Sequence record: ON556632.1
Length of the DNA: 42,991 nt
Reading direction: 5' to 3' (one strand)
Origin: Escherichia phage hz69
The notes below the pieces were generated by a model that worked only from the letters and a program-made list of their open reading frames with translations, was not told the origin of the DNA and ran no database searches. Positions within the stretch are counted from its first letter, which is position 1, and each line of letters starts with the position of its first letter. This document shows, piece by piece, positions 39,337 to 41,629 of this stretch. Position numbers and translations under genes: made by a program.

Positions 39337-39630
39337 TTATTTGTGTCTCCAGATGTATTGTCGTCTCTGCGGTTTCGTTGGAATATCATCGTACCCCAGC
39401 GATTTCCAGTAATTGAATAACCGATTAGCGATTGCAGCGCGCTCCTGCGTTTTAAACTCACCGAGATTCACGGCCTTCCCGTTCTGGAACCCGCAGGCGC
39501 GGACCGCTTTGCGTCTGGCCTGAATCTCGGGGTACAGCGCGTTACGACGTCGCTTGTATATCTGGGTGTTCGCTCTCGGTGACAGCGGCGCAAGGCCGCT
39601 TCGCTTCAGTATGTCAGTTGCCAGGCTCAT
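39337..39630 (-). CDS. basic hypothetical protein (97 aa)
   Basis: ATG 39630 with G-rich RBS; pI clearly basic; directly upstream of the holin. Confidence 0.5.
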   Translation of the reverse strand: MSLATDILKRSGLAPLSPRANTQIYKRRRNALYPEIQARRKAVRACGFQNGKAVNLGEFKTQERAAIANRLFNYWKSLGYDDIPTKPQRRQYIWRHK

Positions 39631-39842
39631 ACATCATCCCCACTCGACAGCCATTCAGTATAGTTTATATAGGGCTCGAAACTAACACGTTCACCCAAAT
39701 CATACAAACACATGGCCTCGCACATAGCGTCGGCATGTGTCTTGAGCGCCTTGTAATCTTCGTAGCGAACCACCTCGACCCAATCTTCGTAGAATGCGTC
39801 GCCCCCTAATTCAGTTCCTCGCGCTTCATATCTCTGTACCAT
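39627..39842 (-). CDS. hypothetical protein, MVQRY paralogue B (71 aa)
   Basis: Starts MVQRYEARG...YEDYKALK, paralogous to the upstream gene; TGATG coupling. Confidence 0.5.
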   Translation of the reverse strand: MVQRYEARGTELGGDAFYEDWVEVVRYEDYKALKTHADAMCEAMCLYDLGERVSFEPYINYTEWLSSGDDV

Positions 39843-40096
39843 CACTCCACCCCTTCCACATGTGTAACAGACCCACAGTTCGCGCACTCGACGTAATCCG
39901 GGAACTGGTCTTTGTATTTCTGTAACTCGGCTTCGAGTTCCTTAATTACCCCCGCATACTGCTCTGCAACCGTGTAAGCGGAGGCTTTGTACGCCTTAAA
40001 ATCTGCTTCGAGTTTCGCATAGTCTTCATAACTTACAAACTCACCGGCATCGTTTTCATAATAGTCGTTATATGAAGCGTTATATCTCTGTACCAT
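39842..40096 (-). CDS. hypothetical protein, MVQRY paralogue A (84 aa)
   Basis: ATG 40096 with RBS GGAG; MVQRYNAS...YEDYAKLE; C-terminal CANCG. Confidence 0.5.
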   Translation of the reverse strand: MVQRYNASYNDYYENDAGEFVSYEDYAKLEADFKAYKASAYTVAEQYAGVIKELEAELQKYKDQFPDYVECANCGSVTHVEGVE

Positions 40097-40098
40097 AA

Positions 40099-40302
40099 TC
40101 ACTTCTCCTGTTTACCAAGTCGCTTAGGTGAGCAGATAGCGCGTACCTCTGAATCGTTGGGCTTGTCGCCCTGAAACAGGAAGTGCGCGTTCTCTGCGGC
40201 GCGTGCCGCTGACTGGCACGCCTCCATTGAATAAAACGTTTCTGATGCTGCCAGGTGCATCTGGCCTGCAGACAGTACCCAGATAAAGAGGATGCTGGTC
40301 AT
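40099..40302 (-). CDS. hypothetical protein with hydrophobic N-terminus (67 aa)
   Basis: ATG 40302 overlapping upstream stop; MTSILFIWVLSAGQMHLAAS looks like a signal/TM segment. Confidence 0.4.
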   Translation of the reverse strand: MTSILFIWVLSAGQMHLAASETFYSMEACQSAARAAENAHFLFQGDKPNDSEVRAICSPKRLGKQEK

Positions 40303-40652
40303 TTCTTCAGCCCACATTTCTTGCACATCATCGAGGCGCCTTTATCGTAAAAGTACCAATCGTGCTTACATTCCTCGGCTTTAGTCACACCGCAATTAAT
40401 ACATACGGCGGGCGACTTACCCCCGACGAATCGCCAGTTATGGTAGCATTCCTGCGCGTCTTCTTTACGGCAACTAGATTTCCCGTTCATTAACGTTATT
40501 GTCCCCAGTAGCGCATCCACCAGCTCCGACATATCACGTAACTGATTCTTGAGTGACTGCACCTCATGCGCCAGGTCTTCGCACTGGTTGTTATTTACCT
40601 GCTGCCGTAGTTGGTCAATCAGGTACTCGAATACTTCGTTTTTGTTACTCAT
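40299..40652 (-). CDS. zinc-ribbon protein (117 aa)
   Basis: ATGA-coupled; C-terminal CINCG ... CKKCG. Confidence 0.5.
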   Translation of the reverse strand: MSNKNEVFEYLIDQLRQQVNNNQCEDLAHEVQSLKNQLRDMSELVDALLGTITLMNGKSSCRKEDAQECYHNWRFVGGKSPAVCINCGVTKAEECKHDWYFYDKGASMMCKKCGLKK

Positions 40653-40960
40653 ACTGTGTACCTCACTTTTTCCCCACATTTACTACACGTATACCGCTTG
40701 TCGGTTGTATGCTCTGCAAAGTCGACAATCACCCGATGATCACATTCTTCCGCTTCCGGGGGTTCCGGAATCTCCATTGACATCCAGTGTGTCGCGTCTT
40801 TTACGACAAACTGGCATTCGTCGTCGGAGAACCCTTTTTGACTCCGCGAGTACGCGACTCCGTGCACTACGCCGTGGGTCGGGGAGTACACCCATAAATC
40901 ATAATCGTACTCTTCTGGTAATTGCTCGGAGCATTTAACCCACGCACCATTAGTGTTCAT
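40649..40960 (-). CDS. DUF551-like protein with C-terminal zinc ribbon (103 aa)
   Basis: N-terminal WVKCSEQLPEE and THWMSMEIPEPP resemble DUF551 as I recall it; C-terminal CSKCG. Confidence 0.55.
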   Translation of the reverse strand: MNTNGAWVKCSEQLPEEYDYDLWVYSPTHGVVHGVAYSRSQKGFSDDECQFVVKDATHWMSMEIPEPPEAEECDHRVIVDFAEHTTDKRYTCSKCGEKVRYTV

Positions 40961-41078
40961 ATTCTTCGCTCACTCCGTTATAGACGCCGTTGTAATCCCC
41001 GTCGCAGATGAACGGGTAGAGCATATCTTCATACTCGTCCTGCAACTCACCTAAAGTTACTTCGCTATAATCTTTCAT
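40950..41078 (-). CDS. small acidic protein (42 aa)
   Basis: ATG 41078 with strong RBS GGGAGGAGAG; first gene after promoter copy D. Confidence 0.4.
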   Translation of the reverse strand: MKDYSEVTLGELQDEYEDMLYPFICDGDYNGVYNGVSEEYEH

Positions 41079-41109
41079 CTTCCGTCTCTCCTCCCGTTTG
41101 TGTAAATGA

Positions 41110-41138
41110 ATAGTAACCTATTCTATCTCAGTGTACAA
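41110..41138 (-). promoter_or_regulatory. class-2-like promoter copy D (- strand): TTGTAC - 17 bp - TACTAT
   Basis: Revcomp of 41106-41138 is TTGTACACTGAGATAGAATAGGTTACTATTCAT: same -35/-10 frame and dyad as class-2 but the spacer lacks the internal TATAAT. Confidence 0.55.
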
Positions 41139-41157
41139 GTAAATTTTATTGGTGTTT

Positions 41158-41316
41158 TAAAGATAATCGTTCACCTCTAATCCAGTAGTACCTCGGGCGT
41201 CGCGCCCACTGACGCCATCGCATAACACGGTACTTGTTGCCGTCTGACGCAACAATAAGCCCGAATCGCTTTTCTCCGTTTCTACCGGTCCAGGTTACGA
41301 TGTCATTCAGTTTCAT
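41158..41316 (-). CDS. hypothetical basic protein (52 aa)
   Basis: ATG 41316 with RBS GGAG; hand translated. Confidence 0.4.
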
Positions 41317-41440
41317 TGTTGCATCTCCTGCAATAGTCGCTTCGATTGTTGCGTTTGGTGAAATAGAACAAAAATGAGAAAAATGATACGCTGCTGTGTA
41401 GCAGCGTAAGTCACTCAGTAAAATCTCAAACTATTGAACA

Positions 41441-41629
41441 TCACACTTCCGGCGGCTCTGGTAGCGGCATCCAGTGTGTAACCTCATCCCCACAAATAGC
41501 AGAATCCGGGGATGTTACGTACCAGAGGCCTAATCTGAGGTACATAACTTCTACAGACCTACCATCAGTAACCAGTACATCCTCAAGCTCTTCCGGCATC
41601 CGCTCACTACACTTAATCCACTTACTCAT
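41441..41629 (-). CDS. DUF551 protein (62 aa)
   Basis: MSKWIKCSERMPEE...THWMPLPEPP matches the DUF551 pattern as I recall it. Confidence 0.6.
   Translation of the reverse strand: MSKWIKCSERMPEELEDVLVTDGRSVEVMYLRLGLWYVTSPDSAICGDEVTHWMPLPEPPEV

Follow-up and report, generated by a model that had tools for sequence, protein, structure and literature searches.

A mosaic cluster of small modular accessory genes upstream of the lysis cassette in the Kagunavirus Escherichia phage hz69

Organization of the small-gene cluster

The small genes between positions 39627 and 41629 of Escherichia phage hz69 (sequence record ON556632.1) are part of an accessory cluster in a Kagunavirus (Guernseyvirinae) genome, of which a stretch of 42,991 nucleotides (nt), referred to as the window, was analysed. 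An earlier note on this DNA had described tandem paralogues and zinc-ribbon proteins in this interval and had linked them to host range or anti-defence. All genes of the interval are encoded on the minus strand. The cluster is located between a divergent promoter region and the lysis cassette, and two copies of a conserved sigma70-like promoter element seem to drive its leftward transcription. Read along this direction, the first unit consists of the promoter-like element P1, four small genes, a gene for a DUF551 protein of 62 amino acids (aa) and a terminator-like hairpin, which is separated from the second promoter-like element, P2, by the gene for a basic protein of 56 aa. P2 is followed by the genes for a 42-aa protein, a 103-aa DUF551 fusion, a 117-aa protein with putative zinc modules and a 67/75-aa protein, by the genes designated B and A, and by the gene for a 97-aa protein. 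The latter precedes two holin genes and an endolysin gene, which form the lysis cassette.

A megablast search with the region 39300-42100 retrieved 402 phage records, all of which (402/402) belong to the Guernseyvirinae. The best record, Escherichia phage AV104 (Kagunavirus), covers 73% of the region with 93.8% identity, and coverage is patchy in all matching records, which indicates that the region is mosaic. The order of the 117-aa family, the signal-like protein (the 67/75-aa protein) and B is conserved in 37 related loci. The locus is a clean but ordinary case of phage accessory-gene mosaicism. Judged from their sequences, its small proteins are assembled from five modules: the MVQRY head, coiled-coil cassettes, a CxxC...H tail, a 29-aa zinc-ribbon-like module present in one to four copies (1-4), and DUF551. 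Purifying selection maintains the individual modules, whereas their combinations reassort.

Genes A and B share a head and differ in their bodies

Gene B (39842..40096, minus strand) encodes an acidic protein of 84 aa, which consists of an MVQRY head, one coiled-coil cassette and the tail AELQKYKDQFPDYVECANCGSVTHVEGVE and matches phrog_29624 (E=8e-27). Gene A (39627..39842, minus strand) encodes an acidic protein of 71 aa, in which an MVQRY head of the 'RGTELGG' class is joined to a rare body (HADAMCE...GERVSFEPYINYTEWL); it has no match among the PHROG and Pfam families. The stop codon of B and the start codon of A overlap by one base (TGATG). Both proteins start with MVQRY and contain the segment YEDY(K/A)xL, and on these grounds they had been regarded as paralogues. 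This relationship could be confirmed for the head only. BLASTP aligns A and B over nothing but their first 35 residues (15/35 identities, E=2e-4), and the two genes agree in all of their opening 15 nt. A hidden Markov model (HMM) of the B family was built from 113 proteins after removal of every member with an A-type head and was searched against 764 six-frame segments of the window. It recovered B with E=1e-43, and the sole other significant segment was A (E=8.7e-5), again in the first 35 residues. Moreover, the head of A is found on a B-type body in 7/120 of the B-family proteins listed, one of which, P0177, does not differ from A in the first 31 residues. The HMM match and the A-headed B bodies together indicate that the homology of A and B is confined to the head, a segment of about 30 aa with the pattern MVQRY...G-x-W-V-x-YEDY. 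Their C-terminal bodies are unrelated; the tail is present in B and absent from A, which belongs to the MVQRY family by its head alone.

The residues of the head framework, M-V-Q-R-Y...G-x-(W/Y/F)-V-x-Y-E-D-Y-x-x-L, are nearly invariant in 120 sequences. Gene B was found in 100 phage records, with 417 clusters at 90% identity; gene A is restricted to 8 of 50,697 phage records and to 12 representatives among 1.84 billion. An alternative-frame open reading frame, which would extend A to 39627-39887 (GTG start at 39887), overlaps the end of B and encodes CYTCG, was judged to be due to chance, since relatives annotate the MVQRY start, which is preceded by a Shine-Dalgarno-like GGAG.

Reassortment of heads, cassettes and tails

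Proteins of the B family begin with the constant MVQRY and continue with 15-29 hypervariable residues and the conserved segment G-x-(W/Y/F)-V-x-YEDY-x-x-L, followed by 0-2 interchangeable coiled-coil cassettes and the nearly invariant tail, which contains a single CxxC...H. Optional additions are an in-frame zinc module or a W-rich domain of about 55 aa. The cassette of B is bracketed by an internal direct repeat of 30 nt (39910-39939 and 39985-40014, 77% identical), which encodes LEA(D/E)..YK. Short relatives of B (57-60 aa), e.g., P0135, lack exactly the bracketed cassette, which suggests its deletion or insertion by recombination between the LEA repeats.

Like the window, 11/37 of the related loci have a second gene with an MVQRY head past B; its body is of at least six unrelated kinds across these relatives. 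Individual head classes recur on different bodies and in either gene position: the 'NASYNDYY' head of the window B is joined to another body in the second gene of locus L007, and the 'RGTELGG' head of A is found on at least eight bodies. In total, 100 distinct heads cluster into 22 classes, and in 11/11 tandem pairs of the relatives the two heads are of differing class, with a loop identity of 11-29%. Chimeric relatives that join parts of A, B and the zinc module are SHAK7693 gp69, P0214, P0121 and P0247. Since heads are reused across bodies and positions, A is best described as a B-family head allele that was recombined onto a rare body. The module combinations are reassorted at two conserved joints, YEDYAKLEA and SGCRKEDxQEC. 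Diversity-generating hypermutation of the variable head is unlikely, because the heads form discrete, internally conserved classes. The W-rich domain (...VDVKFRDG...W/RWW...DIIAYR), which is absent from the window, is swappable as well; it is present in P0167 of the B family and in P0084 of the 117-aa family and matches no Pfam family.

The earlier note had proposed that the genes diversify in an arms race, for which a dN/dS ratio (non-synonymous to synonymous substitution rate) of at least 1 between close alleles would be expected. Pairwise Nei-Gojobori (NG86) estimates were obtained for each module from close alleles, in sets chosen by protein regular expressions. The ratio was 0.05 for the B tail (22 sequences, 229 pairs), 0.04 for gene A of the window in comparison with phage BUCT825 (dN 0.016, dS 0.379), 0.02-0.11 for three head classes and 0.02 for one alternative body. 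For the N-terminus of the 117-aa protein, the signal-like protein and the 62-aa DUF551 protein it amounted to 0.09, 0.10 and 0.06, respectively. Thus, all modules lie between 0.02 and 0.11, positive selection was detected in none of them by this pairwise comparison, and the arms-race claim was not borne out. Low ratios in every module indicate that the diversity results from the exchange of old conserved modules rather than from rapid amino-acid substitution. The genes are nevertheless variable accessory genes and not invariant housekeeping genes, as is evident from the rarity of A, the 22 head classes and a DUF551 fusion that is shared with a single other cultured phage.

Zinc-ribbon-like modules

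The 117-aa protein (40299..40652, minus strand; phrog_6094) consists of an N-terminal helix (MSNKNEVFEYLIDQLRQQV), a coiled coil and two modules of 29 aa each. It had been described as a zinc-ribbon protein, and this holds at the level of the modules: a profile of 29 positions, derived from 185 distinct modules of the 117-aa family, matches its two tandem EC-x-H-x-W...C-x-x-C-G modules with E=1.7e-19 and 6.6e-18. The putative ligands, C69/H71...C84/C87 and C95/H97...C110/C113, are invariant or nearly so in 67 sequences. Zinc binding by this protein, as well as by the 82-aa and 103-aa proteins described below, is putative and is read from the ligand pattern. AlphaFold2 predicts two helices (residues 3-58), a disordered linker and two beta-hairpins (73-84 and 99-110) with a mean pLDDT (predicted local distance difference test) of 74.3. 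The family comprises 1201 clusters, is present in 283 phage records and spans the genera Jerseyvirus and Kagunavirus. In its members, the N-terminal helix is constant, the coiled coil varies and the module is present in 1-4 copies; among the 120 best matches, one copy is found in 9 proteins, two in 93, three in 17 and four in 1.

One more C-x-H...C-x-x-C-G module is encoded across the lysis cassette and outside of the interval described earlier, in the gene for an 82-aa coiled-coil protein (37096..37344, minus strand; E=1.7e-6 with the zinc-module HMM). This protein and the 117-aa protein are paralogues, and in BLASTP searches it aligns to both modules of the latter (E=2e-5 and 3e-4). By sequence comparison, the zinc-like module is therefore common to the 117-aa and 82-aa proteins in the same way as the head is the only module common to A and B. 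The profile also detects the add-ons of B relatives in AV104 (5.6e-8) and SHAK7693 gp69 (4e-8). In both the 117-aa and the B family the module travels together with the linker SGCRKEDxQEC, which identifies the linker as a recombination joint.

DUF551 genes

Both DUF551 genes predicted by the earlier note exceed the gathering cut-off of PF04448, which is 22 bits. The stand-alone gene (41441..41629, minus strand) encodes an acidic protein of 62 aa (net charge -7) and is the last gene of the first unit; it matches PF04448 with 60.9 bits (E=2.3e-16) and has homologues in 662 phage records, P22 and Stx phages included. In the 103-aa fusion (40649..40960, minus strand), DUF551 occupies residues 6-69 (36.3 bits, E=1e-8) and is followed by a putative C-terminal zinc knuckle. 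The motifs W-(I/V)-x-C-S-E-x-x-P-E and T-H-W-M...P-x-P-P are invariant in both window copies, three relatives and one DUF551 protein of an Stx2 phage.

The proposal that the 103-aa protein ends in a zinc ribbon could be maintained in part. Its C-terminus reads EC-D-H-x16-C-S-K-C-G, and the putative ligands C73/H75...C92/C95 are conserved in 4/4 known copies; however, the tail does not match the zinc-module HMM significantly (E about 2), and only the ligand pattern and the position agree. The statistics thus do not support an origin of this C-terminus by copying of the zinc module. A variant of the protein that is 95% identical and has the same DUF551, P0242, carries a canonical zinc module at the same junction (E=1.7e-6). 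The fusion is very rare, with three clusters among 5.8 billion proteins, and elsewhere its full form was found in one cultured phage (EcoPhCCP1) and one IMG/VR contig.

The two DUF551 genes of the window are 38% identical (E=8e-9). The DUF551 part of the 103-aa protein is 48% identical to genes of Stx2 prophages, in which its relative is located in the exo-xis region, adjoining an ead/Ea22-like gene and a DksA-like zinc-finger gene. Furthermore, the two window genes belong to separate transcription units, which are split by the terminator-like hairpin and P2. The greater identity to the Stx2 genes and the separate units argue for separate histories of the pair, within one family, and not for a local duplication.

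Promoter-like elements and timing of expression

P1 (42501..42548, minus strand) consists of TTGCAC, a 17-nt spacer and TACTAT with the core AATAGGATACTATTCA and heads the first leftward unit of small genes. P2 (41092..41139, minus strand), with TTGTAC, a 17-nt spacer and TACTAT, is a second copy of P1 and heads the unit with the remaining genes; the two form a direct repeat of 48 nt with 75% identity. The terminator-like hairpin (41387..41408, minus strand) has a stem of 9 bp followed by a T-run and lies directly past the 62-aa DUF551 gene. The core AATAGGnTACTATTCA of the TTGYAC-17-nt-TACTAT repeat occurs five times in the window, compared to 0.02 expected occurrences; a motif scan located the further sites at 2976-2995 (minus strand), 21776-21795 (plus strand) and 30672-30691 (plus strand). 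Of 39 related loci, 33 have the core on the gene strand, most often as 1-2 copies that precede the small-gene cluster; it is probably a phage-specific promoter or regulator site.

Early expression of the cluster is plausible from its position and the two promoter-like copies. The only Kagunavirus time course found is that of phage K1B4, in which four genes were classed as early, one of them, a helix-turn-helix (HTH) gene, by name. According to the K1B4 supplementary table, this early HTH gene lies on the strand opposite to the small-gene and lysis genes. The published time course is too coarse to class the small genes of the cluster, and a genome-reduction paper concerns a Skatevirus, which is outside this group.

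Relation to known systems

The closest analogue of the cluster is the lambdoid exo-xis region with its mosaic Ea22/Ead proteins. In Ea22 of lambda and Stx phages and Ead of P22 (IPR025153), as in the window proteins, an N-terminal segment is followed by a central coiled coil, and the terminal domains are swappable. In both cases, the genes look like non-essential accessory genes and occupy positions close to the beginning of a leftward operon. DUF551 is found in one Ea22 variant (PMC10834534), and the nearest relatives of the 103-aa DUF551 adjoin Ea22-like and zinc-finger genes in Stx2 prophages. No sequence similarity is detectable between Ea22/Ead and the window proteins, neither as an Ead_Ea22 Pfam match at E<=0.1 nor in per-member scans. 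Unlike Ea22/Ead, the window proteins are 2-3 times smaller, have their polymorphic part in the N-terminal head and belong to a virulent phage, to which a role in the lysogeny decision is inapplicable.

DUF551 (PF04448) is also known from YfdS of the E. coli prophage CPS-53 and EaA/orf87 of P22, and both window genes keep the pattern W-x-x-C-S-E...THWM-x-x-P-x-P-P. The domain is portable and is fused to many partners; unlike these usual fusions, that with C-x-H...C-x-x-C-G is very rare. The modules of the 117-aa protein resemble generic zinc ribbons (A2L, PF08792, or rubredoxin-like) in having two putative ligand pairs, which flank a modelled beta-hairpin, and there are sub-threshold matches to A2L_zn_ribbon, GATA and rubredoxin-like models. 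In contrast to generic zinc ribbons, the first ligand pair is C-x-H instead of C-x-x-C, and the module has the signature (K/R)-x-D-x-x-E-C-x-H-x-W...C-x-x-C-G and is used as a tandem cassette.

Lar (PF14354) is a small zinc-ribbon protein of the Rac prophage, which functions in restriction alleviation. Lar, too, is small, phage-borne and rich in cysteine, and those B relatives that carry a zinc add-on match it weakly (best E=1.2e-4). None of the window proteins B, A, 117-aa and 103-aa matches Lar, and all relatives remain under the cut-off of 28.6 bits (best 17.9). Kagunaviruses are reported to be sensitive to restriction-modification (RM) systems, which is unlike the context of Lar.

In per-member Pfam scans, 187 relatives yielded only sub-threshold coiled-coil and zinc-ribbon noise and the weak Lar matches. 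Sequence searches of the PDB gave nothing significant, and a literature search for the MVQRY and tail peptide motifs found no paper.

Possible functions of the cluster

It is reasonably likely that the interval is a hyper-mosaic accessory cluster of Kagunaviruses, the small proteins of which combine five portable mini-modules and act as oligomeric adaptors or inhibitors. According to this modular reading, the proteins would be made in infection and would bind to host or phage proteins, with the polymorphic head picking a variable partner and the coiled coil together with the Cys/His tail or the zinc modules providing oligomerization or docking to something conserved. Docking to a conserved partner is suggested by the near-invariant tail. 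For B, AlphaFold2 (alignment of 120 sequences) predicts a beta-sheet of residues 2-21 and a helix of residues 23-64 with a pLDDT above 90; the mean pLDDT is 78.6. The net charges of A and B (-10 each) and of the 62-aa and 103-aa DUF551 proteins (-7 and -9) argue against direct DNA binding by these proteins; the 117-aa protein is neutral.

Several points speak against this modular reading. The C-terminal hairpin around the CxxC of B is modelled with low confidence (pLDDT 46-59), and oligomerization and metal binding are deduced from sequence patterns and from models of monomers. Foldseek searches of the PDB with the models of B and the 117-aa protein gave nothing at E<1, a BFVD search returned the own family only, and Pfam, PHROGs, NCBIfam and PADLOC searches with all genes yielded only DUF551 and PHROGs without function. 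P1 and P2 are consensus-type promoter predictions. In addition, the choice of the dN/dS sets by protein regular expressions biases dN downward; despite this bias, dS values of 0.3-0.8 in combination with near-identical proteins point to real coding constraint.

A more specific form of the modular reading, which is itself unlikely, is a specificity-cassette system with one or two slots. The beta-sheet heads, of which there are at least 22 classes, would each recognize a different strain-variable host factor, e.g., a defence component, the invariant zinc-knuckle tail or modules would dock onto a conserved hub or drive oligomerization, and the phage would re-arm by a head swap through recombination at the YEDYAKLEA joint. 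A rival reading, that of the earlier note, is that the tandem MVQRY genes, together with the DUF551/zinc-ribbon genes, serve in anti-defence or determine the host range, and that an arms race with strain-variable bacterial immunity would diversify their heads. This explanation is doubtful. The discrete polymorphism of the heads with two differing heads per genome, the patchy accessory distribution, the small size and acidity of the proteins and their position at the start of a leftward operon would all fit, and 6/120 of the relatives with a zinc add-on show sub-threshold matches to Lar_restr_allev (best E=1.2e-4). However, the best Lar score of 17.9 bits is below the cut-off of 28.6 bits, B of the window does not match Lar, and the dN/dS ratio is well under 1 within head classes. 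Kagunaviruses of the BASEL collection were reported to be highly sensitive to RM systems and variably sensitive to Old, and homologues of B are found in three of them (Bas71, Bas73 and Bas74). The anti-CRISPR candidates of the EcoPhCCP1 paper are other small coding sequences and were picked by predictors only. With no match to a known anti-defence family beyond the sub-threshold Lar matches of these relatives, an anti-defence role can be graded as possible but unsupported.

A different role was considered for the proteins with zinc-ribbon features (117 aa, 82 aa and the B tail), which might regulate transcription or the timing of lysis in analogy to small zinc-finger activators of late genes such as P2 Ogr. 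The lysis and structural genes downstream would then be controlled through contacts of these proteins with RNA polymerase or nucleic acid. With 283 records, the 117-aa family occurs almost universally in Guernseyvirinae, its conserved N-terminal helix is under purifying selection, and its gene is located directly upstream of the lysis cassette on the same strand. The neutral charge of the protein is compatible with such a function, and weak local structural matches, all with E >1, are to zinc sites of nucleic-acid enzymes. For this family, a regulatory role is a reasonable rival. For the zinc-ribbon proteins as a whole, it is rather improbable: Pfam scans of the window proteins and 187 relatives revealed no transcription-factor family and no match to P2 Ogr or P4 Delta, a specific regulator would not usually vary between one and four module copies, strong acidity characterizes A, B and the DUF551 proteins, and a promoter-like site is present between the 97-aa gene and the holin gene. 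The last alternative, that A arose from B by in-situ tandem duplication in this lineage and diverged afterwards, with the same history for the DUF551 pair, is very improbable. A and B are adjacent and share the start peptide and 15 identical 5' nucleotides, and the DUF551 pair aligns significantly; however, a duplication predicts that the A and B heads of one genome are sisters, and the observed pattern is the opposite. Their heads come from two distinct old classes (loop identity 29%), both of which recur elsewhere in further combinations and gene positions, and their bodies are unrelated, while the DUF551 genes are not adjacent and the 103-aa copy is nearer to the Stx-prophage genes than to its neighbour.

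Should the modular reading be true, the cluster would be a compact natural example of domain-level recombination that yields protein diversity in a virulent phage: its joints are clear, its heads fall into discrete classes and every part is under strong purifying selection. Kagunaviruses are members of the BASEL collection and serve as small chassis for engineering, which makes head-swap and deletion work easy, and such work could reveal the targets of very common 'hypothetical' genes. In case of neutral mosaicism, the cluster would be a well-documented instance of a familiar pattern.

Neighbouring genes and related genomes

The first gene past P2 (40950..41078, minus strand; phrog_35344, E=2e-33) encodes a very acidic protein of 42 aa with a charge of -11 and overlaps the downstream 103-aa gene by 11 nt. 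The signal-like protein of 67 to 75 aa (40099..40326, minus strand; phrog_3766, E=6e-36) possesses a hydrophobic, signal-peptide-like N-terminus (MTSILFIWVLSAGQ) and conserved cysteines, and its gene is syntenic between the 117-aa gene and B in most related loci; the protein may be secreted or membrane-associated. The final small gene before the holins (39337..39630, minus strand; phrog_9632, E=7.5e-56) encodes the very basic 97-aa protein (isoelectric point 11). In some relatives (BUCT825, SHAK7693), a gene for an HslV-like peptidase is inserted after the 97-aa gene.

Downstream of the lysis cassette, a weak NinH-like match under the Pfam cut-off (36435-36695, minus strand; E=2.8e-5) and a DUF2737 protein that exceeds the Pfam cut-off (37501-37656, minus strand) were found. 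Both gene types are typical of the lambdoid nin region and are present here in a virulent siphovirus, which strengthens the lambdoid flavour of the accessory genes.

Among the related loci, L005 (OR594180.1) belongs to Escherichia phage vB_EcoM_SHAK7693, which is labelled as Autographiviridae/Kayfunavirus in GenBank and carries 'EcoM' in its name. Its genome of 45.2 kb has the gene content and synteny of a Kagunavirus, with the same small-gene cluster and lysis cassette, and the GenBank taxonomy line of this record is probably wrong.

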